The position numbers and the translations under genes were made by a program. This document shows, one piece after another, positions 3,836-22,569 of a stretch of 64,000 nucleotides of DNA. Below the pieces are notes generated by a model that saw only the letters and a list, made by a program, of their open reading frames with translations, had not been told where the DNA came from and did no database searches. The DNA is taken from assembly GCA_964538435.1 (NCBI GenBank), contig CAZIDX010000001.1:64393-128392 (forward strand), written 5' to 3'. Each line of letters starts with the position of its first letter. The first letter of the stretch is position 1. The stretch is from an uncultured Gammaproteobacteria bacterium. Lineage in GTDB: Bacteria > Patescibacteriota > Patescibacteriia > UBA9934 > GWF2-40-263.

Positions 3836-3867
3836 TTGAAAAAGGCAGGCAATGACCTGTCTTTTTG
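3836..3867 (+). terminator. putative rho-independent terminator after hpf
   Basis: The sequence aaggcagg-caatga-cctgtctt (one G-U wobble) is followed by a T-run. Confidence 0.4.
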
Positions 3868-3915
3868 ATTGAAAGACTTGATTTTTACTCGATTACAGGC
3901 CATAATGCGCTCCGT

Positions 3916-6678: not shown

Positions 6679-6696
6679 TTATCCACAAAACTGATA

Positions 6697-6728
6697 TTGA
6701 CACCACCTAAGACACATGCTGCAATAAT
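6697..6728 (+). promoter_or_regulatory. candidate promoter for the four-helix-bundle gene
   Basis: TTGACA at 6697-6702 with a weak -10 (TGCAAT/AATAAT) about 17-20 nt downstream. This TTGACA is what the ORF track used as a TTG start. Confidence 0.25.
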
Positions 6729-6762
6729 TACACAATCCCCTAATTCGGGGATTTTGTTTTAT

Positions 6763-6791
6763 ATAGGTCCAATAGGACCCTCAAGACCTAT
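6763..6791 (+). repeat. 29 bp palindromic motif, copy 1 (ataggtccaataggaccctcaagacctat), overlapping the start codon
   Basis: The outer arms ataggtc/gacctat are exact reverse complements. A second copy at 7142-7170 matches at 23 of 29 positions. Confidence 0.6.
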
Positions 6792-7332
6792 GGAGGATAA
6801 GCTAATTACAAATCAAGGTGGATATCGCAATCTAAAGTCATTTCAGAGCGCAACGATTGTTTATGATTTTACTGTACATTTTTGCGAAAAGTATATTTCA
6901 GATTGGAGAATGAAAGATCAAATGATCCATGCAGCAAGATCAGGTCGACAGAACATCGCAGAGGGATGTCAGGTGTCAGGAACATCAAAAAAGAGTGAGA
7001 TGAAGCTGGTGAATGTTGCTCGTGGAAGTTTGGAGGAGTTGTTGTTAGATTACGAAGATTATTTAAGGCAGAGAGGGGTTGAGCAGTGGAAAAAGGATTG
7101 TGATGACGCACAGAATGTGCGCTCACTCGCATATGTGGAAAATAGGTCATATAGGACCTATTCGACCTATCTATCAGACCCGTCCAAAGCTGCAAACACA
7201 GCAATCTGCCTAATTAAACAATCAACCTATTTACTTGACCGACAGTTGGGTGCGCTCCAAAAAACATTCCTTCAAGATGGTGGATTTACTGAAAGGTTGT
7301 ATAATTATCGTAAGCAAAGTAGAGGTTTTTAG
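6790..7332 (+). CDS. four helix bundle protein (TIGR02436; 23S rRNA intervening-sequence protein family)
   Basis: Family signature EKYisdwrmkDQMIHAARSgrQNIAEGcqv...KSEMKLVNVARGSLEELLLDYED. In-frame ATG at 6790. It has its own promoter-like box and a terminator. Confidence 0.75.
   Translation: MEDKLITNQGGYRNLKSFQSATIVYDFTVHFCEKYISDWRMKDQMIHAARSGRQNIAEGCQVSGTSKKSEMKLVNVARGSLEELLLDYEDYLRQRGVEQWKKDCDDAQNVRSLAYVENRSYRTYSTYLSDPSKAANTAICLIKQSTYLLDRQLGALQKTFLQDGGFTERLYNYRKQSRGF
7142..7170 (+). repeat. 29 bp palindromic motif, copy 2 (ataggtcatataggacctattcgacctat), inside the same CDS
   Basis: Same arm structure as copy 1. It encodes NRSYRTYSTY. Confidence 0.6.
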
Positions 7333-7352
7333 ACCTTCTGTGGAAGGTTTTT
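7333..7352 (+). terminator. rho-independent terminator
   Basis: accttc-tgtg-gaaggt followed by TTTT, immediately after the TAG stop. Confidence 0.5.
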
Positions 7353-7403
7353 CATCGACAAAGATGATAAGCTTACATAATAAGAGTTAAACGAAACTAA
7401 TCT

Positions 7404-7769
7404 ATGAACCCAGAAGAAAGAGAGAGATGGGCACCAAAGTTTGAATACAAAGTCGGTGAACTCGACACTGATTCAATAAAGGCCGAAATGGAAGCCCAAG
7501 ACTTCCGCTGGGACTATGTTGAAGCTGCAGTCGATTACCTCAGCAAGCCTGACGAAATCGCAAAGAACATGGGAAACTTCATTGATCTTGACCCAAATGA
7601 AGAAGAGAGGCTCATGTCTGCAATCCATCAGAAGATTGAGTGGCACACAAAAAACTATGTTGCTGGTAACAACCAAGAAGCCATCGGTGTTTACAGTAGT
7701 CCTAGTTGGGAGGTGACTCAGTTCGTTGGAGATAAAATCCGAGAGAAACTAACGTTTACAAATTTATGA
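7404..7769 (+). CDS. hypothetical protein
   Basis: 121 aa acidic ORF with no motif I recognise. Its stop overlaps the next gene's ATG. Confidence 0.45.
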   Translation: MNPEERERWAPKFEYKVGELDTDSIKAEMEAQDFRWDYVEAAVDYLSKPDEIAKNMGNFIDLDPNEEERLMSAIHQKIEWHTKNYVAGNNQEAIGVYSSPSWEVTQFVGDKIREKLTFTNL

Positions 7770-8452
7770 GCAAAGTAATTCTTATCACCGGAGGGAGTTC
7801 AGGGCTTGGGAAGGAGACAGCTAAGCTGCTTGTTCCAGACAACAAAGTTATTATCCTCTCCCATATCGAAGAAGAAGCAAAGCCGGCAGCCGAAGAGCTC
7901 GGTTGCGACTATGTGGTTGCAAACGTGACTGATGCAGAGCAGGTTGAAAAAGCAGTGGCAGAGGTTGTGGAAAAGCACGGCTCACTCGATGTTCTCATCA
8001 ACTGCGCAGGAATCTGGGAAGAGGGTCAACTTGAAGACTGCTCACCAGAGCGACTCAAGCTTGTTGTTGACATCAACCTCAACGGAACCATGCTCATGTG
8101 CCGCGCCGCGCTCCCGCAGATGAAAAAGCAAAAAGCAGGAATGATCTTTAACATCATCTCCCAAGCTGGACTCGGAGTAAAAGGCGATCGCACCGTGTAC
8201 TACGCATCAAAGTGGGGAGTCCGAGGCTTCACTGGCTGTCTTCAAAAAGACGTGCAAGCAGATGGTGTGCGCGTGACCGCTGTGTATCCTGGTGTGATGG
8301 ACACCGGCCTTTTTGACACCTCTGGTCACTCGCGAGACCTTTCAGAGGCTCTCGATCCAACAGAGACAGCAAAGACTATGGCATTTGTTATAGGTCTGGG
8401 AGAAAACACTCACGTAGGCGAGATCGGGCTTCGATCAATCACTGAGATCTAA
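7766..8452 (+). CDS. SDR family oxidoreductase
   Basis: Rossmann fold motif ITGGSSGLGKETA and the catalytic YYASKWG (YxxxK). Confidence 0.85.
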   Translation: MSKVILITGGSSGLGKETAKLLVPDNKVIILSHIEEEAKPAAEELGCDYVVANVTDAEQVEKAVAEVVEKHGSLDVLINCAGIWEEGQLEDCSPERLKLVVDINLNGTMLMCRAALPQMKKQKAGMIFNIISQAGLGVKGDRTVYYASKWGVRGFTGCLQKDVQADGVRVTAVYPGVMDTGLFDTSGHSRDLSEALDPTETAKTMAFVIGLGENTHVGEIGLRSITEI

Positions 8453-8949: not shown

Positions 8950-11900
8950 CTAGATTGCGTGCTCTGCTATGTATTCTTTCAGAGCATTTGCCATCTTCTC
9001 GTATCCTTCACCTGTCATGTTATCGATGAAGTTGTCGTGTGTGCCAGACTTAAGATCTATTCCTGGGTCAATGATTGGATACGCCGCACGGAATTCACTA
9101 AACGGCATCAGATCCTCGCCATTACTGAATGCGGTTTCCACAAAACTCTGTGCGGCAGTAAGAAAATCTCCACCATTTGAGAGAATCCAGTTCTCTACAC
9201 CAATCCCTCCAAGACCGCCCTGGCCATAGTCACCCTTTTTGTAGCAACCAGCTTCAGTAAGTGTCATTTTTGCAAACACAACATTTGTTACCGTCCTCTC
9301 AAAAGCTTCTTCCCCATACTTCTCGCGAATGACATTGAGTCGATCTTGCACACCAAAATGAGATGAGTATTCTTCGTGCTCAGACTTTTGAACGAATGCA
9401 ATATCGATCCCCACAGGAATATCCAAACCTGGAACCGAAATGTCTCCAAAACGGAGTTGAATATCATGGGATCCGTTATCTGTTCCACCCAGAGCCTCCA
9501 GTTTTACGATAAACGCATCAAGAAGCTCGTCTCTGCGAGCGTAATCTGCAGGATCAAGTCGGATTGCAAAGTCAAAGTCATAGTCCTTAGGTCGGTTTGT
9601 AAAGCGAGTGGATGACCCAGTCTCATGCAACTCCGCACCCGCTATAGTGGCTTCGTGATCCACCCTCCATTCAATTCCAAGGGATGTGAACGTATCTGCC
9701 ACAAGTGCACGCACAGTCTCACAAGCAACCCTTGTTGCTTCCTTGTCTTCTTGCTTTGCTCTAAGCAATTCCTCAACAGCGTTGTTGTGAAATTCATCTG
9801 CCTCTGCTCGTGCAAGATCAAATTCAGGCCCATTCAGACTCTCAATACCTGCAAGAAACTTCTCACGCATCTGGTCATATTGCTCAGGTGTAAACAAGAG
9901 CTCTCCATCAAGGTTTATGATCGGCATGTACCAACCATTCGTAGCAACATCAATTTGTAGACTCTGAAGATGGCTTTGATCAAATTCATCACCAAGCACC
10001 ACGGCATCAAACTCAGAAGAGGGGAGACCTACAGTCACACCCGTATGCCTTTCAGTTCCTTTTGTTGGCACCATTGAACCGTCGCGCCTAAGAGAGGTAA
10101 GTTGATCTGAAACCAGGAGCTCATATTTTCCTTCTCGTTTGCGAGCCTCTCTTCCAAACAAAGGCATCTGCTCACCATCATCACTTGTGCGGATAAACTG
10201 ACCTCTGTCCCTGCTGTAGAAGTACACAGGTCCATAGCCCTGAACCCACTCTTCTGCTTCACGAAGATCAGATCGAACTTCAACAAAGTCAGTATTAAAC
10301 GGGGTCATATCATTCTCGCTAGATGCTCCAAGAAACTCCATTGAAACAGAACCTCCTCTCAACACATTTCTGAAGAACTGCTCGTTAACCCCTTTAAACT
10401 GGTCTCCGCTCTGAGGCGTAAATTCACCTGAGCGAATTTCTTCTGCTAAAGCCCTACCACGCTCGTTAGCACCTGCCTTCACCTGATCCATCCGATCAAG
10501 AACTTGATCGACCGATTCATACCCAACAGGCTTTGCAAACATTTCCTCGTACCTATCAACCAAACTCTGCCCCTCTTTAACCTGCATGCTCTCCAAAAGT
10601 TGCTTGAAGGTTGTGGCAAGGCCTTCCTCATTCATTGTAAATGGTTCTTCGTCAATTTTTCCAAGCATGGACACCTCATGAGCTGTAGACATCTTTTCGC
10701 AGAAACGAGAAAACCTCTTCTGTTCCTCTTCATTCATGCCCTCAAGTCCGACTTGTTCAAATTTTTGAATAACATCCCGAGCATCTCGTATACTTTCAAG
10801 ATAGGTTCTTAGAGAGTCGTTGTTTGATTCAATATTTACACGTGTGAGCTCTCGATAAGCAACCATTCTCATGCCCCTGGTGCTCACATCTTCAAGTGAA
10901 ACAACGGGGCCATCATCAAGACGTCTATCTAGAGTGCTCTGATCACGAAGATAGATTATTTCAAAGACTTTCAGGTGTTTTCCAAACTCAGGAAGATTGT
11001 TGCGAACAAAAATTGCTTCAATCTCTTCAACAGTCTCAAGGGGTTTTTCTGTTCTGTGAATAGCTGCTATGACAGAGTCTTTTACCTTTTGAAGTGAAGC
11101 CGAAGGTGATTGTTCAATTCGTGCATAAGCTTCAAAAAGATCAGGTCGAACACCCTCAGCCTCAAAGTGCTCACGATGAAACATGATCTGCTGGAATCGG
11201 CCTTTCTCTAGCGCGGAATCTATAAGCGCGTTGTAATCAATCTTCACCCCAGCTTGATCAAAGAGCCCTCCATATCCAAGAAGCACCTCTGTCCCAGCCT
11301 TCTGAGTAAGGGAATCAGCAAGCGCCTGCACTCCAACTTGATCTATGAAATCAGCATGATACTTCAAAAGTTGAGTGAATGCATACACACCATCACTTGT
11401 TGTTGGGTCTACATGCACCTTCACCGTCTCAACGATCTGCTGAACATCATCTTTAGATAATTCAAAGTTTGGACCTTGAAAAGCATTCTTCTCCACAAGA
11501 ATCCCAATCAGTTCTGTGTGAGTATCGATCCTTCCTATCAGAAGATCTTTAATTTGATTGCGCAATTCCGGATCAAGCAGCTCAAGAAAATCTGGATCAA
11601 TTATTCGTTGAACCTCTTTCACATTTCCATACTCAGCAGCTGTAAGTGCATAACGCTGTCTTGTTTCCGGATTCAGATCAACAGCATCAAAAGTGTGCAT
11701 TTCATACACAAGTGTGACTTCATCTTGTTCAAGAAGTCTCTGCGCAAACTCATCAGCTCTTTCCCCGGAGAAGGTGGCCAAGTAAAACGGCTCTCTGGTT
11801 AACATCCATGCTCTGCTGTCCCTGAACTTATCTCGGTCAAGCCACTCAGCTCCCTCAACATCTGCATGGTCTTTCAGTTTCAATACAATATCTGCAGTGT

Positions 11901-13170
11901 CACCTGCTGATAATTCTCGAAATTGGATCATTTTTTGAACGTTTTCAAGAAGAGGAGGACCAACTTCTGGAATTGCAAGAGCTTCTGGTTTTGATTCACA
12001 AAAGGCAATAGCGAAAGCCTTGATATGTTCTTTTGTCCTCAGTGCTGATGTCTTGAGAACAAGAGGGTTTCCATGTGAAAGAGCGATCTGCACTTCATCT
12101 TCAAGAGTGATGCTTGCCGGTCGCACGGATGATTCGTAGATATAAAGAGAGTTGATTGGAGCATCCTCCTCGGCAACAGCAGCAAGTTCATTCAAAGCGT
12201 TTATTCTTGTTTCTCTATCAAAGTCAGCATTCGTTCCAAGCATAAGAATCAACCCGGGAAGACCATGCTCAAATGCAGATGTTGCGAGCATTTCTTTTTG
12301 CTGCGCACTCATCTTTACATCACGGCCACGGTCGTCATAGACAGCTTCTCTCAATTCGTCTGGGCTCAATGCCATAAGCTTCTCAAGCATGCTCTGCCTT
12401 GCCTCATCAGAAGCATGTTCAAATACAACAGGATTGAGAAAATCGCCCTTCTCACCAATCCATTCTCCCTTTTCATTGTCAAAACAAAGCGCAGCTTTCA
12501 ATTCGCTTTGAAGAGCGGTCCTTCCTACGAACACATGATCAAGACGAAGTTTCGATGCGCAAAATTCACGCATGCCCGATGCAAGAGGATCGCCTTGATC
12601 CATGTCAACCACACGTTTGAAAAATCGTTCCTGCTGATCTGATGTGAGCGCAAGACCGTCAAAGTGATGTCTTACTTGGGGAAGATTGTGGTCCACCAAA
12701 GTATCAATAAGCTTATCGTGAGTCTCAGGCGTTAAAGCGTTTCCATCAATCAAGCTTAAAAACTCGCCTGCACTGCTTGGATCCTTGGCAATGGCATCAA
12801 CAAACATCTTGACTTGCTTGTAGTCAGGCTTCTCTCCAGACACAGACAATCTGTGTGCAATCTTCTTTGGATCACCAAGCCCGATTGTTTCCAGCATCTG
12901 GTCCATTGCTTCTTCGGCTCTCTGCGCAAGACTAGCGAGCTTCTCTCGCAGTGTCTCGTCAGGTTCCTCTCCAAGGTTTTCTGCTATCTCAGATGTCATC
13001 TGTTCTCCGCTTGCAACAAAATCTTCCACATGGCCTTCAGCCTGCTCTGCAAGTTCACCAGGGACTGGCTCATACCGATCATCCAGCTCCTCATTAGACA
13101 ATGGTTCAGACTCAGCACCTGCTTTCTGGTTGTCGCGTTTGTCCTCTCTATTCATTGTCATATTCCTCAT
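8950..13170 (-). CDS. giant 1406 aa protein with a C-terminal Pol-beta-superfamily nucleotidyltransferase-like motif
   Basis: Long uninterrupted ORF with an acidic N-terminus and no signal peptide. Near the C-terminus, GSSTRFTNRPKDYDFDFAI fits hG[GS]x9-13DhDh, and GIDIAFV about 55 aa downstream fits the third acidic strand. Confidence 0.7.
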   Translation of the reverse strand: MRNMTMNREDKRDNQKAGAESEPLSNEELDDRYEPVPGELAEQAEGHVEDFVASGEQMTSEIAENLGEEPDETLREKLASLAQRAEEAMDQMLETIGLGDPKKIAHRLSVSGEKPDYKQVKMFVDAIAKDPSSAGEFLSLIDGNALTPETHDKLIDTLVDHNLPQVRHHFDGLALTSDQQERFFKRVVDMDQGDPLASGMREFCASKLRLDHVFVGRTALQSELKAALCFDNEKGEWIGEKGDFLNPVVFEHASDEARQSMLEKLMALSPDELREAVYDDRGRDVKMSAQQKEMLATSAFEHGLPGLILMLGTNADFDRETRINALNELAAVAEEDAPINSLYIYESSVRPASITLEDEVQIALSHGNPLVLKTSALRTKEHIKAFAIAFCESKPEALAIPEVGPPLLENVQKMIQFRELSAGDTADIVLKLKDHADVEGAEWLDRDKFRDSRAWMLTREPFYLATFSGERADEFAQRLLEQDEVTLVYEMHTFDAVDLNPETRQRYALTAAEYGNVKEVQRIIDPDFLELLDPELRNQIKDLLIGRIDTHTELIGILVEKNAFQGPNFELSKDDVQQIVETVKVHVDPTTSDGVYAFTQLLKYHADFIDQVGVQALADSLTQKAGTEVLLGYGGLFDQAGVKIDYNALIDSALEKGRFQQIMFHREHFEAEGVRPDLFEAYARIEQSPSASLQKVKDSVIAAIHRTEKPLETVEEIEAIFVRNNLPEFGKHLKVFEIIYLRDQSTLDRRLDDGPVVSLEDVSTRGMRMVAYRELTRVNIESNNDSLRTYLESIRDARDVIQKFEQVGLEGMNEEEQKRFSRFCEKMSTAHEVSMLGKIDEEPFTMNEEGLATTFKQLLESMQVKEGQSLVDRYEEMFAKPVGYESVDQVLDRMDQVKAGANERGRALAEEIRSGEFTPQSGDQFKGVNEQFFRNVLRGGSVSMEFLGASSENDMTPFNTDFVEVRSDLREAEEWVQGYGPVYFYSRDRGQFIRTSDDGEQMPLFGREARKREGKYELLVSDQLTSLRRDGSMVPTKGTERHTGVTVGLPSSEFDAVVLGDEFDQSHLQSLQIDVATNGWYMPIINLDGELLFTPEQYDQMREKFLAGIESLNGPEFDLARAEADEFHNNAVEELLRAKQEDKEATRVACETVRALVADTFTSLGIEWRVDHEATIAGAELHETGSSTRFTNRPKDYDFDFAIRLDPADYARRDELLDAFIVKLEALGGTDNGSHDIQLRFGDISVPGLDIPVGIDIAFVQKSEHEEYSSHFGVQDRLNVIREKYGEEAFERTVTNVVFAKMTLTEAGCYKKGDYGQGGLGGIGVENWILSNGGDFLTAAQSFVETAFSNGEDLMPFSEFRAAYPIIDPGIDLKSGTHDNFIDNMTGEGYEKMANALKEYIAEHAI

Positions 13171-13385: not shown

Positions 13386-14699
13386 CTAGTTGGGGAGACG
13401 AATCTGGGCGACCAGACCGTCTGAGACAAGCTCGAGATCCATTGGACCCTTCCTTAGAAGCGCCAGGAGCCGGGCGTGTTGTTCGTCGCGAAGTCCGATG
13501 AGGACACAGTTATGGATCAGTTCCTGCTCGGCCTTAATGTTGTCGATCCTGCGCTGGATGGCACTGTGTGAGCTGTTACGCGTGATCGCGTTACACGTGA
13601 TCTGGCCCACTGCACCAAGACGGTAAAGAGTCAGCATCTGCATCGGGCCCCAATCCAAGTGAGGTTGCTCTTCCCATACAAAGATCGAAGTACCGTTCAG
13701 GAACGCTTCGTCAACATCCAGGTCGATCTCATCATCAACTGACGACTGCATCCACGTGCTCATGAGCCACTGGTTCTCAGTAGACGAGAGAATGCGTGCC
13801 TGACCCTTGTGTACAAAAGCACCGCTGATGGCTGCACTTGTTGCAATGAGGGTTGCATTCGATGACTCTGGCATTTCCTCGCGCATCTGCATGCGCCCAG
13901 GAGTTGGTCGGATCTGCACCAAGTGCCAATCATCAGGCTGATCAGGGTGAATCACGAGTTCGAGCTGAACACCGAACTTGGATCCGATCCCATTCTCAAT
14001 CACACGAGGAAGTTCTTGCGCAAGATCGGACCAGGGCAGGGTAACAGGATTCTCAACCAGCACCTCACCTCGTTGGAGCTCGACAAGAGTATTCCCATCT
14101 GTGTCCAGTACGGTAGTAGGCCCCTCATGATCCATGGTTGCACTTGTAAACTTTCGGATACCGCTCGGGCAAAATTCTCGTCCGCAGGAAATACGGACGA
14201 CAACCTGCTCGAGGATATCGCTCCATGCGATATCAACCACCACCCCAACACCCGTCACATGCTGTTGCAGTACGATGGGGATGCGGGCATGGATCGATTC
14301 GATGAGCTGGCCGCGCAGATTCGGAATCTTAACCTTGTGGGAAGGGTGAACGCCGCTGTCAGCCGAGAGCCAGTCTTCGTCATGTGCACTGCTGCGCACA
14401 ATGAGAACTTCGTTTTGGTCCTGCGCCCACGGGATACCAGCAATGAACTGGCCCATGTCCTGATGCATGACTTCAGAAAGTTGGATCCAACGCCACTTGG
14501 GCACCGAGATCTTGTCAGAGAGTCGCGCAATTCGCTTGCACAGCTCCAGTCCAAATGCTTTGCCCCCACCTGTCATCAGCGTAGTGACAAGCTGTAGATG
14601 ATCATCTGGATCCAGATGCTCAAATGCAGGATCCATCACAACAGCGCCTGCGCGCCGGTGGCCGTAAACCCAGCCACATGGGTCGAACTTCTTGTTCAT
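13386..14699 (-). CDS. PEP-utilising enzyme N-terminal (PPDK_N, ATP-grasp-like) domain protein; GC-rich
   Basis: TGGGKAFGLEL (GGKxxNL-like) and LIVRSSAHDEDWLSADSG (VRSSAxxED..SxAG) match the PPDK_N family. No His/PEP domain follows. Confidence 0.55.
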   Translation of the reverse strand: MNKKFDPCGWVYGHRRAGAVVMDPAFEHLDPDDHLQLVTTLMTGGGKAFGLELCKRIARLSDKISVPKWRWIQLSEVMHQDMGQFIAGIPWAQDQNEVLIVRSSAHDEDWLSADSGVHPSHKVKIPNLRGQLIESIHARIPIVLQQHVTGVGVVVDIAWSDILEQVVVRISCGREFCPSGIRKFTSATMDHEGPTTVLDTDGNTLVELQRGEVLVENPVTLPWSDLAQELPRVIENGIGSKFGVQLELVIHPDQPDDWHLVQIRPTPGRMQMREEMPESSNATLIATSAAISGAFVHKGQARILSSTENQWLMSTWMQSSVDDEIDLDVDEAFLNGTSIFVWEEQPHLDWGPMQMLTLYRLGAVGQITCNAITRNSSHSAIQRRIDNIKAEQELIHNCVLIGLRDEQHARLLALLRKGPMDLELVSDGLVAQIRLPN

Positions 14700-14830: not shown

Positions 14831-16885
14831 ATGCAAACTTGGAAAGTGAAGAAAAAGAACGAAAAAAAGCCAAAGAAGACAACAGGCGTGAAAATCGCCG
14901 CAATTTTACTTCTTTTGTCTACATTCGTTTTCGCGGGATATGACTTCCCGGGTGTATGGAATGGAGCAGCTCACTCTGTTGAGTCAGCAACAGGTTGGCT
15001 TCCACCAACACTAGAGGAGGAGGATTTCCGGCTCGGTCTTGATCTGCAAGGTGGAACACATCTCATCTATGAAGCAGACATGGCAGAGATCCCGGAAGAC
15101 GATCGTCTTGAAGCCCTTGAGGGAGTAAAGGATGTTATTGAGCGTCGTGTGAACGCGTTTGGTGTGTCTGAGCCTGTTGTGCAAACAACAACCACAGGTG
15201 GCACCTATCGTGTCATCATCGAACTCGCTGGAGTTCTTGATGTAAACGAGGCTATCTCACTTATTGGTGAGACCCCAGTACTTGAGTTCAAAGAGCCGGG
15301 TCAAGAGCTTGAACGTGATCCAACAGAAGAAGAATTAGCTCAAGTGGAAACAGCAAACGAAACCGAACGTGCAGATGCACAAGCTGTGCTTAGTCGCGCG
15401 CTGGCATACGAAGATTTTGATGCACTCGTGAGCGAGTTTAGTATCGAAGTTGACAAAGAGGAGCGAAAAGGTGTGATTGAAGGAATCACAGGAGACTCCC
15501 ACTTCTCTGATTTTCTGATTCTCGCAGAAGAGAACTACATGTGGGACGGACAGGTTCACAGTAGTCTGCATGAGACTGAAGATGGTATTAACATTTTCAA
15601 GCTGGTTGAAACAACCGAGCAGGCTCAAATGGAGCTTTCTCACATTTTGGTTTGTTACGAAGGGGCAATAGGATGTGAAACCGGACTTCCACAAATCGAA
15701 GCTCACACACAGATGAGTAGTCTCAAAGATGAGCTTACGGTTGAGAACTTTGCTGAAAAAGCCATGGAGTATTCAACCGGTCCTTCAGGGCCGATTGGAG
15801 GATCTCTTGGCTGGGCATCAGCTGACATGTTCGTAACACCATTTGCTGTTGCAGCAACCGCGCTCGAAGTTGGTGGGATCTCAGACGTGATTGAGACAGA
15901 ATTTGGTTACCACATCATCTACAAAACATCAGAGCGATCTACGCCGGCATACACAATTCAGCGAATCGTAATGCCGCTTACAGATATCTATGACGTGATC
16001 CCAGAAGTTTCACCATGGGAGAACACCGAGCTTTCTGGAAAGTACCTTGAGCGTGCTGGTGTGGAATTTGATATGAACACAGGAATGCCATACGTGGCAC
16101 TCAACTTTAACAGCGAAGGTGGAGACTTGTTTGGGGAGCTGACAGAAGCGCATGTTGGAGAGCCAATTGCGATCTTCCTCGATGGACAACCAATCTCAAC
16201 ACCAACAGTTCAGCAGGCAATCTACGGAGGAAAGGCGATTATCACTGGAGATTTCACAGTAGACGAGGCAAAGCTCTTGGCTCAGCGTCTAAACGCAGGT
16301 GCGCTTCCAGTTCCTGTAAACCTGCTCTCACAACAGACAATTGGACCAACACTGGGTGCCATCTCACTTGAAAAGAGCATCAATGCAGCGCTATTTGGCT
16401 TCCTGCTCGTGGCAATCTACATGGTTGCCATGTACCGACTTCCAGGCCTAGTTGCTGTTGCTGCGCTCCTCATGTTCGCATTCCTCAACATGGCTGCGTA
16501 CCGACTCTTTGATGTGACAATCACACTGGCTGGAATCGCTGGACTTGTTCTTTCACTCGGAATTGCTGTTGATGCAAACGTGCTCATTATCGAGCGTCTC
16601 AAAGAAGAGTTTGCCTCAGGTCGAGATTTTGTCTCATCACTTGACGAAGCTTTTGCTCGCGCCTGGACAGCTATTCGAGACGGAAACATCACAACACTCA
16701 TTGCTGCTGGAGTTCTATACTGGTTTAGCTCAAGCTTTATCCGAGGGTTCGCACTCACGCTATCAATTGGTGTGATCCTCTCAATGTTCACAGCAATTAC
16801 GGTTACACGCGTATACCTCAAATCCCTCTTGGATTGGAAGGCAATTCGCAAACCAGCCTTATTCGGGTTAAAGAAACGAGACTAA
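14831..16885 (+). CDS. secD: protein translocase subunit SecD with a PrsA/PpiC-type parvulin domain inserted in its periplasmic head
   Basis: SecD motifs LGLDLQGGTHLIYEAD and the C-terminal part of P1 are present. Residues about 266-366 read SHILVCYEG...GGSLGWASADMFVTPFAVAATALEVGGISDVIETEFGYHIIYK, a parvulin signature. Confidence 0.88.
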   Translation: MQTWKVKKKNEKKPKKTTGVKIAAILLLLSTFVFAGYDFPGVWNGAAHSVESATGWLPPTLEEEDFRLGLDLQGGTHLIYEADMAEIPEDDRLEALEGVKDVIERRVNAFGVSEPVVQTTTTGGTYRVIIELAGVLDVNEAISLIGETPVLEFKEPGQELERDPTEEELAQVETANETERADAQAVLSRALAYEDFDALVSEFSIEVDKEERKGVIEGITGDSHFSDFLILAEENYMWDGQVHSSLHETEDGINIFKLVETTEQAQMELSHILVCYEGAIGCETGLPQIEAHTQMSSLKDELTVENFAEKAMEYSTGPSGPIGGSLGWASADMFVTPFAVAATALEVGGISDVIETEFGYHIIYKTSERSTPAYTIQRIVMPLTDIYDVIPEVSPWENTELSGKYLERAGVEFDMNTGMPYVALNFNSEGGDLFGELTEAHVGEPIAIFLDGQPISTPTVQQAIYGGKAIITGDFTVDEAKLLAQRLNAGALPVPVNLLSQQTIGPTLGAISLEKSINAALFGFLLVAIYMVAMYRLPGLVAVAALLMFAFLNMAAYRLFDVTITLAGIAGLVLSLGIAVDANVLIIERLKEEFASGRDFVSSLDEAFARAWTAIRDGNITTLIAAGVLYWFSSSFIRGFALTLSIGVILSMFTAITVTRVYLKSLLDWKAIRKPALFGLKKRD

Positions 16886-16886
16886 T

Positions 16887-17777
16887 ATGCGTATGAACAT
16901 CGTAGAAAACCGCAAAAAGTGGTTCGTTCTATCAGGCGTCTTCGTTGCTGGAAGCATCATTGTTGTCACGCTGCTAGGACTCAGATTCGGAATCGACTTT
17001 ACTGGCGGAAGCTTGCTCGAGGTTGAATTTGAAGCCGCACCAGTTGTTGATGAGGTTCGAAGCACGCTAGCATCAGCGGGGTATACAGACGTAGCCGTGC
17101 AGACAACGGGAGAGCATGGTGTCATTATTCGAACAGACAGTCTTTCAGAAGACGAGCATCAAACAATCCTCACATCGCTTTCAGAGGCGCATGGAGAAGT
17201 TGAGGAGATGCGTTTTGACTCCATTGGGCCAGTGATCGGTGACGAGCTTCGCAGAACTGCGCTCATGGGGGTGGCACTCACACTGCTTCTCATCGGACTC
17301 TATGTCGCATGGGCATTCCGCAAGGTTACTGAACCTGTTGCTTCGTGGAAGTATGGAGCCCTCACAATCATGACAGCATTCCATGACGTAATCATCACGG
17401 TTGGTGCGTTCTCTCTCCTTGGTTACTTCTTTGGGTGGGAGATTGGGACAGCCTTCGTGGCGGCAACGCTAACCATTCTAGGTTACTCAATCAACGACAC
17501 AGTTGTAGTTTTTGACAGGACGCGAGAAAACCTCCTTCGCCGTGCCGCAGATACATTCGAAGACACCGTTGAAATGAGCATCAAGGAAACACTCATGCGC
17601 TCACTCAACACATCTGTCACCACATTACTTGCGCTAGCTGCGATCTTCCTTTTCGGAGGTGATAGCACGCAACCCTTCGCACTCGCGCTCATAATTGGAA
17701 TCGCGATCGGTACCTACTCGTCACTATTTCTGGCAAGTCCAGCTCTGGTCGAGTGGGAGCTCGCAGGCAAAAAATAA
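16887..17777 (+). CDS. secF: protein translocase subunit SecF
   Basis: 296 aa polytopic membrane protein directly after secD, with a typical SecF core. Confidence 0.88.
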   Translation: MRMNIVENRKKWFVLSGVFVAGSIIVVTLLGLRFGIDFTGGSLLEVEFEAAPVVDEVRSTLASAGYTDVAVQTTGEHGVIIRTDSLSEDEHQTILTSLSEAHGEVEEMRFDSIGPVIGDELRRTALMGVALTLLLIGLYVAWAFRKVTEPVASWKYGALTIMTAFHDVIITVGAFSLLGYFFGWEIGTAFVAATLTILGYSINDTVVVFDRTRENLLRRAADTFEDTVEMSIKETLMRSLNTSVTTLLALAAIFLFGGDSTQPFALALIIGIAIGTYSSLFLASPALVEWELAGKK

Positions 17778-17786
17778 TATCTGGAT

Positions 17787-17814
17787 AAAAAACTGGGTTT
17801 CGACCCAGTTTTTT
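17787..17814 (+). terminator. rho-independent terminator after secF
   Basis: ctgggt-ttcg-acccag followed by TTTTTT. Confidence 0.6.
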
Positions 17815-17837: not shown

Positions 17838-19577
17838 ATGCCTATGATTCCATTGTTGGGTATTCCGATTGTATCGGATGCAACAGGAACAGCTGCCGCA
17901 GCAACATCATACTTCGCACAACCTATCGATGCGATTCTTTTTGATATCCTGATCTGGTTTGGTTGGATCCCGATTGCAGTCACGCTTGTCTGGGGCTTCA
18001 CGCTGGTTTGGCTTGGTTACAGACAGGCTGGGCATGTGGCCAGGCTTAAGTACATGGTGCTTGCTATCGATGTTCCTGCAATGACAGAGCAGTCACCAAA
18101 GGCACTTGAGAACCTTTTTGCATCTCTGTACGCATGTAAGTCTTCGATCACATTCAAAGAAAAATGGCTCTACGGAAAATTAAATCCAAATTTTTCATTT
18201 GAGATTGTTTCCACAGAAGGCTATATCCAATTTCTAATCAGGTTCCAAACACGATTCCGAGATGTTATTGAAGCTGGTATCTACGCACACTATCCTGATG
18301 CAGAGATCACAGAAGTTGAGGACTACACTGAACAATTTCCAAAAACCTTTCCAAACGAAACACATGAAATGTGGGGAGGGGAAATTACGTTTGACAAACC
18401 GTCCATGTACCCACTTCGGACCTATGTTGATTTTGAAGATCGGTTGTCTGCAGAACTAAAAGACCCCTTGGCCTACATGCTCGAGCAAATGGCAAAAATG
18501 AAAGCAGGGGAGCATTTTTGGATTCAGATTATTGTCCAACCTTCAACAAATAGCTGGAAGGATGCAGGTGTGAATCACGTTAAGGCTATTTACGGGGATG
18601 TCCCAAAGCCAAAAAAGAGCAAGATTGCTGCTGGAGCCGAATCGCTCATGTCTTGGCCAAACGAGCTTCTTAAAGAAGGTATAGATGTAGATTTAAGCGG
18701 ACTGCTGTTTGGTGATGCAGCAAACGGAGAAGAAGACCCTTGGAAAGTTTTCAAGCTGACATTGCCCCAAATCGAGGAGGCAAAAGCCATTTTACAAAAA
18801 TCAACAAAGGTTGGGCACGGAGTAAAAATCCGCATTCTTTACGTTGCAAAGCACAACTCCTATGTAAAGATTGAGCGCACAGCAATGGTAAAGGGGATCA
18901 TGAACCAGTACGCACACCTCAACTTCAATCGTTTTGGTCTGCATATTGCTTCAGTTCCAAAAGATGATTATTTCTGGATGAAATGGAGCTATACAAAACG
19001 CCAAAACACACTCATGAAGGCATATTGCTCACGCTCATGGGGAATTGGCGCACACAACATGTGGATGAACGTTGAGGAATTGGCAACGCTTTGGCATTTC
19101 CCTGCGGTCCACATTAAAGCACCGCTCGTTAAGAAGGCAGAGGCCAAGCGTGCCGAGCCTCCGGTTGGTCTTCCCATCACAGATCTAGAAGACACACTTC
19201 CTGGATACAAACCCACCACAGCAGACGAGGGGTTGGATCTGCCTGGGGCTGGGCAAGATCAGCAAGAATATTCAGCCGGCATTGCCACAGCTGATTCAGT
19301 GATGGGTGAGCCGCCTGTGGATCTCCCAGGAGCGAGTCTAGAGGATGGTCCGTTGCCAGAAACACTTCCTTCAACAATCGCACCAACAAGCACAGAGCAA
19401 CCAGAACCTGAAACAACAATCGATATCCCAGAGCCACCTGAACCAGAACCTGAAAAAGACCCTCTTGCATTTGAAGAAAGCGTACTCCCTGAGGTAAAGG
19501 CTCCGACCGACAAAGAAAGCCAAGAAGAACTCAAGGACGATGATGAAACATTTGTCCCACCAAACCTTCCAGTATGA
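17838..19577 (+). CDS. membrane-anchored protein with an acidic, Pro-rich C-terminus; partner of the downstream T4CP-like ATPase
   Basis: One or two N-terminal TM helices, then a roughly 480 aa soluble region. The C-terminal region is Pro-, Glu- and Asp-rich. Its stop overlaps the next ATG. Confidence 0.55.
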   Translation: MPMIPLLGIPIVSDATGTAAAATSYFAQPIDAILFDILIWFGWIPIAVTLVWGFTLVWLGYRQAGHVARLKYMVLAIDVPAMTEQSPKALENLFASLYACKSSITFKEKWLYGKLNPNFSFEIVSTEGYIQFLIRFQTRFRDVIEAGIYAHYPDAEITEVEDYTEQFPKTFPNETHEMWGGEITFDKPSMYPLRTYVDFEDRLSAELKDPLAYMLEQMAKMKAGEHFWIQIIVQPSTNSWKDAGVNHVKAIYGDVPKPKKSKIAAGAESLMSWPNELLKEGIDVDLSGLLFGDAANGEEDPWKVFKLTLPQIEEAKAILQKSTKVGHGVKIRILYVAKHNSYVKIERTAMVKGIMNQYAHLNFNRFGLHIASVPKDDYFWMKWSYTKRQNTLMKAYCSRSWGIGAHNMWMNVEELATLWHFPAVHIKAPLVKKAEAKRAEPPVGLPITDLEDTLPGYKPTTADEGLDLPGAGQDQQEYSAGIATADSVMGEPPVDLPGASLEDGPLPETLPSTIAPTSTEQPEPETTIDIPEPPEPEPEKDPLAFEESVLPEVKAPTDKESQEELKDDDETFVPPNLPV

Positions 19578-21769
19578 CAATGCATCACGACCATGAGAAC
19601 GAGGTGACGTATTTTGGAAAGACCAACTTCCGCAATCAGCTCACCAAGTTCGGAATCAAAACCGACGATAGGCGTAGGCATATCTACGTGATCGGAAAGA
19701 CCGGTATGGGTAAGACGACATTGATGGAAAACTTCATCTTGTCTGATATCTATGCGGGTCATGGTTGTTGTTATGTTGATCCTCACGGAGACACTGCAGA
19801 AAAACTTATTGACTTCATTCCAAGCTGGCGCATCAATGACGTAGTGTATTTCAACCCAGCTGATTTAGAATATCCTGTAGGATTTAATATTCTCGAAGCT
19901 GTTACAGAAAGGCATAAGCACTTAGTTGCTTCTGGAATGATGGCAGTGTTCGCCAAGATTTGGGAAGGAATGTGGTCATCGCGAATGGAATACATTCTCA
20001 ACAACACTATCCTTGCGCTCCTGGACAATCCAGGCCAAACAATGCTTGGAATCAACCGAATGATGTCTGATGCGGAATTTAGAAAGCGAATGGTTGGAAA
20101 CATTAAAGATCCGGTTGTAAAACAATTCTGGGTAAAGGAGTTCGCTAGCTGGTCAGAGAAATACGCCACAGAAGCCACAGCCGCCATTCAAAACAAGATC
20201 GGTCAGTTCTTGTCTGCGGGTGTGATCCGAAACGTGGTTGCGCAGGTTAAGTCCACAATCGACATCCGTGACATCATGGATTCTGAAAAGATTTTCATCA
20301 TCAACCTGTCAAAAGGGCGTATTGGTGAAGATAACTCCAGGCTCCTGGGTGGGTTGCTTATTACAAAAATTCAGCTCGCAGCCATGGAGCGTGTGGATGT
20401 ACCAGAAAAGGAGCGCAAAGACTTTTATCTCTACGTGGATGAGTTCCAAAACTTTGCTGTTGAATCTTTTGCGTCCATTTTGTCTGAGGCGCGTAAGTAT
20501 CGCCTTTGCCTAACCATGGCTCACCAGTACATTGCTCAGCTCACAGAAGAAGTTCGCGATGCTGTGTTTGGTAACGTTGGAACCATTCTTGCCTTTCGTG
20601 TTGGAGCAGCAGATGCCATGTACATGGAAACCGAGTTTACACCTAGGTTTCTGCCAGAAGACATTATCAATCTTCCAAAATTCAACATCTACCTCAAACT
20701 ATTGATTGATGGTGTGACAAGCCAGCCGTTTTCAGCGGTCACGCTCCCGCCAATTGCTCAAGTAACACACTCATCAGAAAAGGTGATTAGAATTGGACGT
20801 GAGCGCTATGCTGAGCCTCGTGCACACATTGAAAAGAATGTTCTCGATTGGAGCGGGCTTGGAAAACAAACGGATGAAGAGATGTATGCAGAAGCTGCAG
20901 AGAAAAAGAAAGCAGCAAAGAGCGCAAACAAACCTCGGCACGAATACAACTGCACACGCTGCAACACAGACATTGTGCTTCCGGTAGAGCTAGATCGTTC
21001 TCGTGCTATTTACTGTGACGACTGCATCACCATTGTTCGTGAGGAGCGAAAGAACAACAAAAAAGGAAAGAAAGGCAAGTCTGCTGACAAGCCAAAGCCG
21101 CCAAAGCCTTCAGAGGGCCAGGTGGTTGAAGCAAAGCCAGAAGAACCATCAATTAGTTTGAAAAAGCTGGAGACCAAGCCAGCAAAAGAAGACCGTCCTA
21201 AGCTAAAGGTTGTCCTTCCTGCAGAGATTAAAGAGCGAGAAGAAAAAGCAAAAGAAAAGGCAAGAGCTGAGAAGGAAAAACCAAAACCACCAAAACAAGA
21301 AAAAGCTCCAGAGCCAGAGAAGAAGCCAGAAGCTCCAAAACAACCAAAGCCCGAGCACAAAAAAGAAGACAAACCAAAAGAAGAAGAAACGGTCGGTCTA
21401 AAAAAGCTAGAGGAAAAACCAAAGAAACCGGTTCAGGAGGATCGGCCAAAATACAAAGTGATTCCTCCAAAGAAAAAAGAAGAACAAAAACCGAAGACAG
21501 AGGAGCAACCAAAACAAGAGGATCCAAAACCTCAAGATGCTCCAAAAAAGAAAAAGAGAAAGAGACGAAGGAAAAAGAAGCCTGGTCAAAACCCTGAGCA
21601 GCCGAAAAAAAACGAAAACAAACCTGAACCTCCAAAAGCAGACAAGCAGGACAAGCCAGAACAGGATAAAACCAAGCGGCCGCCAACACCAAAGCAGTTT
21701 CAAAAGCAAAAAACAGAAGATCACGTAAGCGGCAAGCTCAAACCTGGACAAAGCATCCAGTTTGATTAA
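19574..21769 (+). CDS. type IV coupling protein-like ATPase (TraD/TrwB/VirD4 family), soluble, with a zinc ribbon and a basic repetitive tail
   Basis: Walker A VIGKTGMGKTT, YVDPHGD, Walker B FYLYVDEFQNF, and ARKYRLCLTMAHQYIAQL. Zinc ribbon CTRCNT..CDDC. About 230 aa of K/E/P-rich tail. No N-terminal TM. Confidence 0.7.
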   Translation: MTMHHDHENEVTYFGKTNFRNQLTKFGIKTDDRRRHIYVIGKTGMGKTTLMENFILSDIYAGHGCCYVDPHGDTAEKLIDFIPSWRINDVVYFNPADLEYPVGFNILEAVTERHKHLVASGMMAVFAKIWEGMWSSRMEYILNNTILALLDNPGQTMLGINRMMSDAEFRKRMVGNIKDPVVKQFWVKEFASWSEKYATEATAAIQNKIGQFLSAGVIRNVVAQVKSTIDIRDIMDSEKIFIINLSKGRIGEDNSRLLGGLLITKIQLAAMERVDVPEKERKDFYLYVDEFQNFAVESFASILSEARKYRLCLTMAHQYIAQLTEEVRDAVFGNVGTILAFRVGAADAMYMETEFTPRFLPEDIINLPKFNIYLKLLIDGVTSQPFSAVTLPPIAQVTHSSEKVIRIGRERYAEPRAHIEKNVLDWSGLGKQTDEEMYAEAAEKKKAAKSANKPRHEYNCTRCNTDIVLPVELDRSRAIYCDDCITIVREERKNNKKGKKGKSADKPKPPKPSEGQVVEAKPEEPSISLKKLETKPAKEDRPKLKVVLPAEIKEREEKAKEKARAEKEKPKPPKQEKAPEPEKKPEAPKQPKPEHKKEDKPKEEETVGLKKLEEKPKKPVQEDRPKYKVIPPKKKEEQKPKTEEQPKQEDPKPQDAPKKKKRKRRRKKKPGQNPEQPKKNENKPEPPKADKQDKPEQDKTKRPPTPKQFQKQKTEDHVSGKLKPGQSIQFD

Positions 21770-21780
21770 GAATCCAATTC

Positions 21781-22545
21781 ATGGACCTCATTCAAGCCCT
21801 GACGTTGGGGCTCGTACAAGGTGTAACAGAATTCCTCCCGATCTCAAGTTCGGGATTCTTAATTTTGGTGCCAGAAATATTTGGTTGGGAGGTGCAAAGC
21901 CTGGCATTTGACGCCTGGCTCCATCTAGCAACTCTTGCAGCGGTTGTGTTCGCACTATTGCCAGAGGTAAAACTGATTTTCACAAACAAAAAATGGAACA
22001 AGGTTGGTTACTGGGTCGCGCTCGCTACCGTTCCAGTGGTAATTGTTGGTTTTCTCGCCAGCGATCTCATCGAAGCCTCAACTCGATCGCTACAAGTTGT
22101 TGCCTGGTCATTTATTATCTGGGGAGTCGTGCTTTACCTTGCAGATCGTTTTTCCAGGCTCCATCAAAAAGACCTCACAGCCGTAGGGTGGAAACGCTCG
22201 CTCATGATTGGTCTAGCTCAGGTAATTGCACTCATTCCAGGAACCTCACGCTCAGGAATCACCATCACAGCCGGCCTTCTCTCAGGTCTAAAACGAGAGC
22301 AAGCAGCAAGGTTCTCGTTTCTGCTTGGCATCCCAACCATTGCAGCAGCTGGAGCATTGAAGTTTCTGGATGTCTTTCAGCAGGGGGTGGCAATCAGTAT
22401 CCTCCCAATCATTGTTGGTGCTGCAGCTGCGTTTTTCACAGCATTCCTTACGATCAAGGTCCTGCTTGCGTTCCTAAAGCGCTACACATTTTCAGAGCTG
22501 GCGGTCTTCCGGATACTCCTTGGTCTTCTCCTTCTTGTTCTGTAA
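21781..22545 (+). CDS. uppP: undecaprenyl-diphosphatase
   Basis: GVTEFLPISSSGFLIL at the N-terminus and a later GTSRSG motif. Polytopic, 254 aa. Confidence 0.88.
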   Translation: MDLIQALTLGLVQGVTEFLPISSSGFLILVPEIFGWEVQSLAFDAWLHLATLAAVVFALLPEVKLIFTNKKWNKVGYWVALATVPVVIVGFLASDLIEASTRSLQVVAWSFIIWGVVLYLADRFSRLHQKDLTAVGWKRSLMIGLAQVIALIPGTSRSGITITAGLLSGLKREQAARFSFLLGIPTIAAAGALKFLDVFQQGVAISILPIIVGAAAAFFTAFLTIKVLLAFLKRYTFSELAVFRILLGLLLLVL

Positions 22546-22569
22546 ACCGCGGACCACCGCGGTTTTTTG
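22545..22569 (+). terminator. rho-independent terminator after uppP
   Basis: accgcgg-acca-ccgcggt followed by TTTTTT. Confidence 0.65.

Follow-up and report, generated by a model that had tools for sequence, protein, structure and literature searches.

A conserved gene pair of Patescibacteria with the features of a type IV coupling protein split into a membrane half and a soluble ATPase half

The window analysed here is a stretch of 64,000 nucleotides of a Patescibacteria genome, that of a Candidatus Uhrbacteria bacterium according to the names carried by homologs (contig CAZIDX010000001.1 of GenBank assembly GCA_964538435.1, forward-strand positions 64,393 to 128,392), in which positions 17838 to 21769 are occupied by two adjacent open reading frames (ORFs), ORF-A and ORF-B. 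The locus raises the question of whether a membrane protein and the soluble ATPase encoded directly behind it form a single type IV coupling protein (T4CP) divided between two genes, and what such a protein would do in a chromosomal housekeeping region. The original prediction, made from the nucleotide sequence alone, proposed a split T4CP of this kind, with a membrane protein followed by a soluble TraD/VirD4-type ATPase, and the comparisons described below bear this out. By its sequence, ORF-B is soluble and belongs with the ATPases of the VirD4/TrwB/TraD (T4CP) family, and both halves of the pair have counterparts in single proteins from other organisms. Relatives in clusters at 90% identity number more than 8000 for ORF-B and more than 1200 for ORF-A, so that both are real genes and not chance ORFs. 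The features of the pair are as follows.

17838..19577, forward strand: ORF-A, 579 aa, putative N-terminal half of a split coupling protein, with a transmembrane (TM) helix, DUF8128 domain, acidic tail and C-terminal motif
17928..18020, forward strand: predicted TM helix of ORF-A, residues ~31-61, from hydropathy and a helix at residues 30-63 of the AlphaFold2 (AF2) model
18051..19175, forward strand: DUF8128 alpha/beta core of ORF-A, residues 72-446, predicted to be cytoplasmic, from alignments, AF2, hhalign and Foldseek
19176..19553, forward strand: acidic, proline-rich tail of ORF-A, residues 447-572, predicted to be disordered from its charge and a predicted local distance difference test (pLDDT) score below 50
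19554..19574, forward strand: C-terminal peptide VPPNLPV of ORF-A, family consensus PPxNLP[FIVTY]
19574..21769, forward strand: ORF-B, 731 aa, putative T4CP-type ATPase, soluble, in which a zinc ribbon and a basic tail precede the C-terminal motif
19574..20908, forward strand: ATPase core of ORF-B, residues 1-445, from Pfam matches, hhalign to TrwB and predicted secondary structure
20951..21025, forward strand: putative zinc ribbon CxxC-x17-CxxC (CTRC-x17-CDDC) of ORF-B, residues 460-484, with C460, C463, C481 and C484
21044..21727, forward strand: K/E/P-rich basic tail of ORF-B, residues 491-718, predicted to be disordered from its charge and pLDDT below 50
21155-21214 and 21395-21460, forward strand: two tail repeats of ~30 aa, starting at ORF-B residues 528 and 608
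21728..21766, forward strand: C-terminal peptide SGKLKPGQSIQFD of ORF-B, family consensus [KR]PG[QE]x[IV]xF[DE]

ORF-B passes the Pfam gathering cut-offs of three T4CP models, TrwB_AAD_bind (49.3 bits, cut-off 20.5), T4SS-DNA_transf (27.1 bits, cut-off 20.1) and TraG-D_C (26.5 bits, cut-off 22), and PF10412 is marked on all 120 listed ORF-B homologs. The profile of a 25-member ORF-B family aligns with TrwB in hhalign with a probability of 94.7% (E 6e-8, 270 columns), such that residues 22-325 correspond to TrwB 108-392. The alignment spans TrwB 181-315 and thus the position of the all-alpha domain (AAD) between Walker A and Walker B, which in TrwB comprises G184-G297 (PMC7434980); the corresponding ORF-B residues ~106-236 are predicted to be entirely helical between strands at 90-93 and 240-244, in a low-confidence AF2 model. 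The catalytic motifs are intact, and every motif quoted in the original prediction was recovered, as was the four-cysteine zinc ribbon. Walker A (GKTGMGKT) is located at residues 41-48 (19694-19717), YVDPHGD at residues 67-73, Walker B (FYLYVDEFQNF) at residues 284-294 (within 20423-20455) and ARKYRLCLTMAHQYIAQL at residues 306-323. The segment ARKYR...AHQ (20489-20542) aligns with GRKAG...GLQ of TrwB, which places the Arg/Lys and Gln motifs after Walker B. ORF-B contains no hydrophobic segment, with no Kyte-Doolittle window of 19 residues above 1.6, in agreement with the claim that it lacks N-terminal TM helices. The ATPase core shares 58-84% identity with its homologs across Uhrbacteria and their relatives.

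The position of ORF-B within the T4CP family is a distant one, since it scores far under every curated cut-off of the NCBIfam T4CP equivalogs; the best of these matches are CD1115 (VirD4-like, 41.8 bits, cut-off 250) and SXT_TraD (39.9 bits, cut-off 366). The best PDB sequence matches, DotL and TrwB, are both weak (E ~7e-4). The original prediction had named FtsK- and HerA-type DNA pumps as the groups to which the ATPase might belong instead, and ORF-B was found to group with neither. The FtsK_SpoIIIE model reaches 14.9 bits against a cut-off of 24, in the P-loop region only, with no match to Ftsk_gamma, and the HerA/DUF87 model reaches 19.4 bits against a cut-off of 23.2, with no HAS barrel domain found. 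The VirB4-type ATPase models P-loop_TraG and AAA_10 do not match ORF-B, and its family profile aligns with VirB4/TrwK in hhalign over 19 P-loop columns only (probability 3.7%). The NCBIfam CedD model NF053655 gives 30.4 bits against a cut-off of 600.

The two halves occur as single, unsplit proteins in several other contexts. In the profile phrog_5156 (824 positions, function unknown), positions 50-290 are matched by ORF-A residues 91-340 (E 5e-14) and positions 407-806 by ORF-B residues 30-425 (E 3e-60), in the same order as in the gene pair. Gp156 of Bacillus phage G (825 aa, 90859-93336) matches the DUF8128 profile with residues 16-322 (hhalign probability 97.6%, E 4e-12, 306 columns) and ORF-B with its C-terminal half (tblastn, E 2e-42). 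An alignment of four phage proteins (G, Shanette gp151, SP8 and 0105phi7-2 gp033) is matched collinearly by DUF8128 (98.4%, columns 76-376) and the ATPase (100%, columns 413-833). These fused proteins of 825-913 aa, for which no mention was found in the searchable literature, have no N-terminal TM segment and contain an internal hydrophobic stretch instead. Gp156 ends in ...KPKKRRAKPGLEFLDN, and thus has in common with ORF-B a basic patch and a KPGxxFxD C-terminus, so that the patch and the terminal peptide are older than the split.

The full layout of TM segment, DUF8128-like domain and ATPase was found in only one protein, an 812-aa 'type IV secretory system conjugative DNA transfer family protein' (WP_331738717) encoded on a linear plasmid of Embleya (Streptomycetaceae). 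Its TM segment is located at residues ~34-56. Residues 80-400 are DUF8128-like, with a probability of 95% (E 4e-8) against a merged DUF8128 and phage profile and 26.7% against the DUF8128 profile (A3) alone, and residues 411-780 form the ATPase (100%, E 6e-44). The gene order comprises PrgI (VirB3-like), a VirB4-like ATPase (P-loop_TraG, AAA_10, TraC_F_IV), the 812-aa protein, a Replic_Relax relaxase-like protein and a hydrolase with SLT and NlpC/P60 domains; from its gene content, this cluster is a recognisable monoderm type IV secretion system (T4SS)/conjugation module. Among the phages, gp156 of phage G adjoins gp155, a VirB4-like ATPase of the C-terminal domain (CTD) type, and Shanette gp151 adjoins a Replic_Relax relaxase-like protein (gp150), with an actin-like ALP protein upstream; in the plasmid-prophage 0105phi7-2, the fused gene lies beside ParA/RepA and RepB primase. 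More remote relatives include a haloarchaeal protein (1193 aa) with a weaker, collinear DUF8128-like N-terminus (50%), a Bradyrhizobium relative with an unrelated N-terminus, and the ATPase core alone on a Sulfitobacter plasmid. No fused form is present among the 120 + 120 + 150 listed Patescibacteria relatives. A 423-aa DUF8128-like protein (99%, E 5e-18) with an N-terminal hydrophobic segment is encoded on a megaplasmid of Pontibacillus sp. ALD_SL1 (locus L093:5983-7254); the ATPase N-terminus aligns with the final 24 residues of this protein, so that it resembles a truncated or disrupted fused gene, and a 'sigma factor-like HTH' (helix-turn-helix) gene lies 3 kb downstream.

The existence of single proteins with both halves in the same order indicates that the ORF-A/ORF-B pair is the split (fission) form of a TM-DUF8128-ATPase coupling protein. 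By the same alignments, ORF-A is this T4CP subtype's own N-terminal module and more than an anchor. The relaxase-like neighbours of the unsplit relatives, which in Embleya also include VirB4-like and VirB3-like proteins, argue that the ancestral job of the DUF8128-T4CP family was to couple a DNA substrate to a T4SS.

The original prediction described ORF-A as a protein with N-terminal TM segments and a large soluble domain that may supply the membrane anchor. The soluble domain stands, and so does the proposed anchoring role; the TM segments reduce to one clear helix, and an anchor alone does not account for the ~375-aa DUF8128 domain, a conserved module of the T4CP subtype. Hydropathy analysis (Kyte-Doolittle, 19-residue window) detects a single segment above 1.6, at residues ~29-61, with a maximum of 2.19 at residue 33. 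The AF2 model of ORF-A likewise shows one long helix, after which comes an alpha/beta domain (pLDDT ~85 over residues 72-420). The basic residues YRQAGHVARLKY after the helix suggest, by the positive-inside rule, an N-out, C-in topology. The domain core contains the motifs LAIDVPxxTEQxPKA and EELATLWHFP and a basic segment, KAPLVKKAEAKRAEPPVGLP, with columns that are invariant in the ORF-A/DUF8128 alignments A1 and A3. PF26449 (DUF8128) is marked on an identical gene (Logan contig) and on 118 of the 120 listed ORF-A homologs; neither name is mentioned in the searchable literature.

Both proteins end in charged, probably disordered tails. The last 133 residues of ORF-A (447-579) carry a net charge of -29 and 23 prolines, and in all 26 close ORF-A homologs the segment after an EPPxGL motif has a negative net charge as well (-9 to -29). 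In the terminal peptide, P574, L577 and P578 are invariant in alignment A1 and at least 90% conserved in A3. In ORF-B, C460, C463 and C484 of the putative zinc ribbon do not vary in alignment A2, in which C481 is conserved to at least 90%; the ribbon gives sub-threshold matches to PF23477 and TIGR04272, the former being marked on many ORF-B homologs. The 241 residues that follow (491-731) include 68 lysines, 10 arginines and 40 prolines, with a net charge of +31. Within them, the run KKKKRKRRRKKK (residues 658-669, 21545-21580) belongs to a family-wide KRKRKRKKK-type run (KRKRxRKKK) conserved in A2. The two ~30-aa repeats noted earlier are real, though they rise only modestly above their low-complexity background: their Smith-Waterman score is 152, compared to 106 +/- 10 for composition-preserving shuffles, of which 1 in 500 reaches 152; at the DNA level, the repeats in the tail region are of low complexity only. 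The second repeat (GLKKLEEK..., residue 608 on) occupies the slot in which close homologs have a second CxxC-x17-CxxC ribbon (..LDxSRPxxC..). The repeats, whose consensus is KKLE..EDRPK[LY]KV, could derive from the zinc ribbon as degenerate copies, although the direct alignment scores of 22-26 are weak. Taken as a pair, the proteins carry oppositely charged disordered tails (window positions 19176-19574 for ORF-A and 21044-21766 for ORF-B), each with a conserved short terminal peptide. An acidic tail with a hydrophobic ...NLP[FV] tip, as in ORF-A, is similar in architecture to the C-terminal tail of the single-stranded DNA-binding protein SSB.

The pair is widely conserved, as shown by the gene neighbourhoods of the 80 best loci of at least 542 species-representative genomes that encode DUF8128, to which all locus counts refer. 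These loci belong to Patescibacteria (Uhr-, Magasanik-, Falkow-, Buchanan- and Kerfeldbacteria, and the Parcubacteria group) or to metagenome-assembled genomes with generic or evidently wrong titles. A DUF8128 profile search yields 2620 clusters at 50% identity, 876 of them at E <= 1e-30. In 56 of the 80 loci, DUF8128 is followed directly by the ORF-B core on the same strand, and six others are cut by contig ends, in keeping with co-conservation of the two genes across Patescibacteria, the lack of which the original prediction had named as a refutation. The zinc ribbon is present in ~40 of 49 complete adjoining ATPases (in two copies in the closest Uhrbacteria), and the [KR]PG[QE]x[IV]xF[DE] terminus, which is also in the A2 consensus, in about half of the adjoining ATPases. 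The PPxNLP motif ends the DUF8128 protein in most loci, with or without an adjoining ATPase.

The surroundings of the pair are conserved in part. SecD and secF are located upstream on the same strand in ~50 of the 80 loci. The original prediction of a core-like site between secDF and uppP is thus sound for secDF; linkage to uppP is kept in only four loci, where it lies downstream, and uppP was rejected as a functional partner. Directly upstream of DUF8128, on the same strand, 33-38 loci encode a protein of ~345 aa that has a Sigma70_r4 domain at its N-terminal and a HARE-HTH domain at its C-terminal end (e.g. locus L038:4750-5787), often between secF and DUF8128; it has no homolog in the window and may be a DNA-binding accessory of the module. 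Viral contigs in IMG/VR contain one DUF8128 fragment and three relatives of the ATPase. One of these, on IMGVR_UViG_3300015370_000561 (4956-6254), is a 432-aa ATPase core, 59% identical, that has no zinc ribbon, tail or nearby DUF8128 and adjoins M23-peptidase-like and HNH-like genes; the contig may represent a Patescibacteria phage that captured half of the module. On IMGVR_UViG_3300006917_000008 (5007-8154), two distant T4CP-like paralogs with 29% and 25% identity to ORF-B are arranged in tandem. The secDF synteny, the housekeeping content of the window and the near absence from viral contigs point to a vertical, core-like setting of the pair.

In comparison with known systems, the unsplit TM-DUF8128-T4CP proteins, homologous to the pair in both halves and collinear with it, constitute the family to which it belongs. 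Unlike them, the pair consists of two genes at a housekeeping locus, with neighbours other than the VirB4-like, PrgI and Replic_Relax genes (Embleya), the VirB4-like gp155 (phage G) or the relaxase-like and partition genes (other phages) that accompany the unsplit forms, and it has gained an acidic tail with PPNLP in ORF-A and a zinc ribbon and ~230-aa basic tail in ORF-B. The VirD4/TrwB/TraD proteins (TrwB of R388, DotL, Cagbeta) share with ORF-B the Walker A and B and the Arg/Gln motifs, as well as an all-alpha insertion, which in ORF-B is placed as in TrwB. ORF-B differs from them in the lack of an N-terminal transmembrane domain (TMD), in place of which the ~375-aa DUF8128 domain is supplied in trans, in the additional zinc ribbon and basic tail, and in the lack of relaxase or T4SS genes among the neighbours checked. 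A subclass of T4CPs without a TMD that works with a separate membrane protein is recognised, as exemplified by TraJ/TraI of pIP501 (PMC7434980). TraJ/TraI and the TraG-TraJ pairs likewise consist of a soluble coupling ATPase that probably reaches the membrane via an adjacent membrane protein (PMC7434980). However, the partners in these systems are described as small, whereas ORF-A has 579 aa and a cytoplasmic domain that is covalently part of related T4CPs. FtsK/SpoIIIE/SftA and HerA are membrane-tethered or soluble hexameric DNA translocases of the same additional-strand catalytic-glutamate (ASCE) P-loop superfamily; in contrast to them, ORF-B has neither a gamma domain nor a HAS barrel and has the T4CP-typical all-alpha insertion.

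The layout of a ~400-aa N-terminal domain followed by a ~400-aa ATPase is also that of VirB4 (TrwK of R388). In a Foldseek search of the PDB with the DUF8128 model, the only significant matches are TrwK chains, which take the first six ranks and rank 8 (E-values from 6e-4 to 6e-3, probability 0.96-1.0, ~440 alignment columns), with TM-scores of 0.26-0.28 on the full 579 residues, of which ~200 are disordered, and an rmsd of at least 8 Å. Other matches in the top ten are two FAD-linked enzymes (0.63 and 0.54) and an ESX-3 translocon chain (0.92). The top 50 include no chain of a CTD-only VirB4 (4ag5/4ag6), TrwB, HerA or FtsK, while the model of the ATPase does match such chains, which suggests that the DUF8128 likeness is to the N-terminal domain (NTD) of VirB4. 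From these models we infer a resemblance of DUF8128 to the VirB4 NTD, as a lead and not a finding. Comparisons at the sequence level are negative. The DUF8128 profiles give hhalign probabilities of at most 1% against TrwK, an 18-sequence VirB4-NTD alignment, TrsD (pSK41) and TrsE; the merged DUF8128 and phage profile is negative against VirB4, TrsE, TrsD, TrsK, phage G gp155 and TrwB; DUF8128 has 0 matches among PDB sequences; and the VirB4 NTD Pfam models (CagE_TrbE_VirB and related) match neither ORF-A nor any of 40 scanned family members. The pair therefore differs from VirB4 and TrsD (pSK41/pGO1) in the lack of sequence-level similarity of DUF8128 and in its T4CP-like ATPase. Besides TrsD, CedB and CedD of the Sulfolobales Ced DNA importer are examples of split or partial VirB4 NTDs. 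CedD of the Sulfolobales Ced system, which consists of a TM segment, a VirB4-NTD-like domain and an ATPase, is required for DNA import (PMC11868833). The likeness of CedD to the pair is one of layout (TM segment, N-terminal domain, ATPase) and not of membership, the CedD ATPase being of the HerA/VirB4 type.

In the window, the pair is immediately surrounded by secD and secF upstream and by uppP (BacA), an HD-domain protein and mnmA downstream; secA, murJ, alaS, priA and clpB, also of housekeeping type, are encoded elsewhere. The features next to the pair are as follows.

3865-6678 and 14831-17777: secA, and secD with secF, all within 14 kb upstream of the pair
17787..17814, forward strand: hairpin AAAAAACTGGGT-ttcg-ACCCAGTTTTTT, located after the secF stop and before the ORF-A start, read from the sequence and unlisted in a consensus terminator scan
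21781..22565, forward strand: uppP (BacA), 11 nt downstream of ORF-B, together with the terminator-like hairpin after it

The start codon of ORF-B overlaps the stop codon of ORF-A as ATGA, which is the geometry of translational coupling that the original prediction had ascribed to the genes. The hairpin at 17787..17814 is probably an intrinsic terminator, such that the pair would start its own transcript, and a strong terminator-like hairpin follows uppP (22544-22565). The two hairpins would delimit a transcription unit of ORF-A, ORF-B and uppP, which are probably co-transcribed in this genome only. The GC content across 14-24 kb is 0.45-0.49, the same as in the rest of the window, and no tRNA genes were found in the window. 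SecD carries inserted rotamase (PpiC-type) domains, and two ORFs without Pfam match lie on the opposite strand just upstream of it, at 8950-13170 (-), 1406 aa, and 13386-14699 (-), 437 aa.

The reading that we favour, with moderate confidence in its molecular picture, is that ORF-A and ORF-B are a split coupling protein that serves a chromosomal T4SS. A T4CP gene would have been split at its interdomain linker in this lineage. The single helix would hold ORF-A in the membrane with the DUF8128 domain facing the cytoplasm, and ORF-B, produced by translational coupling, would dock on ORF-A at the cytoplasmic membrane face. The product of this physical complex would be a membrane-bound, probably hexameric, ATP-driven motor or receptor, of which the zinc ribbon and basic tail of ORF-B probably bind nucleic acid. 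The acidic PPNLP tail of ORF-A and the KPGQxIxF peptide of ORF-B probably tether one half to the other, or the halves to partner proteins. In the F plasmid, for example, TraD binds TraM through its C-terminal tail. The likely job, which is the usual one of a T4CP, would be to bind a substrate, either DNA or nucleoprotein, and to pass it on to a channel in the membrane. The leading candidate for the channel would be the relaxase-less T4SS that is encoded elsewhere on the chromosome in most Patescibacteria. VirB4 is present in 2,417 of 3,035 Patescibacteria assemblies, with relaxases very rare, and of 5,713 VirD4-type T4CP homologues in 2,918 Patescibacteria genomes only 148 are near virB4 (PMC12102498). 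T4SS loci of the class ABY1 often carry comF, recG and radA, and import of DNA or other macromolecules from hosts has been proposed for the Patescibacteria T4SS (PMC12102498).

Several observations weigh against this assignment. About 17 of the 80 loci with enough flanking DNA have DUF8128 and no adjoining ATPase of this or any other kind (in one of them, a 41%-identical T4CP-like gene is located 5 kb away), so the partnership is not obligatorily encoded in cis. No VirB4, VirB6 or relaxase gene was found among the genes within ~10 kb (Pfam marks) or the ten largest other ORFs of the window, as had been noted for VirB-like genes from the outset. In Southlakia epibionticum, the t4cp homologue is non-essential while other T4SS genes are essential, and exaptation has been raised (PMC12102498). 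The AF2 model of ORF-B is poor (pLDDT 50), because of a shallow alignment (effective number of sequences, Neff, 2.2); its fold matches (Cagbeta 0.95, HerA 0.89, VirB4 CTD 0.47) agree with the sequence results and carry little weight.

An exapted housekeeping DNA translocase that works without a T4SS, either in chromosome segregation or clearance at division (compare FtsK, SpoIIIE and the soluble SftA) or in pulling DNA through a competence channel, is the strongest rival, though unlikely. The retention of the pair beside secDF in a housekeeping region with no virB4 near among the genes checked would suit such a role, as would the high identity of the ATPase core across species, the basic tail and zinc ribbon, and the frequent DNA-binding Sigma70_r4 and HARE-HTH protein upstream; exaptation is also left possible by the published survey (PMC12102498). 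However, the FtsK_SpoIIIE match is under threshold with no gamma domain, none of the 80 loci links the pair to ComEC or division genes, and the informative unsplit relatives (Embleya, Shanette) adjoin relaxase-like genes and, in Embleya, also genes of VirB4-like and VirB3-like type, as is classical for a T4CP. A Sec-linked accessory of protein export or envelope biogenesis, which would recruit protein substrates in the manner of effector-translocating T4CPs or act as a SecDF partner, with the basic tail on acidic lipids, is very unlikely. It would account for the order secD-secF-(x)-DUF8128, which is kept even in loci without an adjoining ATPase, for secA at 11 kb upstream in the window and for the probable co-transcription of uppP here. 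Nevertheless, the terminator-like hairpin stands between secF and ORF-A, conserved gene order is weak evidence in small genomes that rearrange slowly, uppP is rarely retained, and the informative neighbours of relatives are DNA-processing genes (Replic_Relax, ParA/RepA, RepB primase).

Least probable of all is a mobile-element remnant or defence component, for instance an ATPase like mad8 of the MADS system. ORF-B residues 14-351 (19574-20630) match PADLOC mad8 (59.7 bits, E 8e-17), relatives occur on plasmids, on phages and beside transposases, and a tail-less copy is present on a viral contig. Yet PADLOC gives no match for ORF-A, neither further MADS genes nor a methyltransferase lie nearby, the pair keeps a fixed, syntenic place on the chromosome of hundreds of species and is strongly conserved in sequence, and its composition shows no anomaly. 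A defence system was accordingly rejected, the mad8 match being to ORF-B alone in a context that does not support it, and mobile-element cargo was rejected for a family that is syntenic and almost absent from viral contigs. The match suggests that mad8 itself is a T4CP-like ATPase. A bolder proposal, which we regard as doubtful, takes the structural lead further: DUF8128 would be a divergent VirB4-type NTD, the family a third VirB4/VirD4 branch, and the ABY1-type split form a vertically inherited housekeeping machine, unlinked to a T4SS, that moves nucleic acid. If this were true, a VirB4-like front half and a T4CP-like motor would move DNA or host-derived nucleoprotein across or along the membrane, and the pair would then be one candidate for how these symbionts, which are auxotrophic for nucleotides, obtain nucleic acid.

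Patescibacteria account for much of bacterial diversity, lack nucleotide synthesis and depend on hosts, and their T4SS is essential in the single species for which this was tested. A 2025 survey counted thousands of orphan T4CP homologues in the phylum and went no further than possible exaptation. The set of ATPases to which ORF-B belongs has already been counted in the literature, and DUF8128 is a Pfam entry; the conserved split unit, DUF8128 as a T4CP module (in an actinobacterial T4SS cluster and in Bacillus phages) and its possible VirB4-NTD likeness were not found in the searchable literature. With the split coupling protein as the favoured reading, one orphan T4CP homologue of Patescibacteria now becomes half of a two-gene unit, and DUF8128 gains a working annotation as the N-terminal module in a subtype of T4CPs whose layout resembles that of VirB4. 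The two conserved terminal peptides, the oppositely charged tails and the zinc ribbon offer experimental handles on DNA movement in these organisms. Should the pair prove to be a T4SS-independent motor for nucleic-acid acquisition, or to bridge VirB4 and VirD4 in evolution, its interest would be high.

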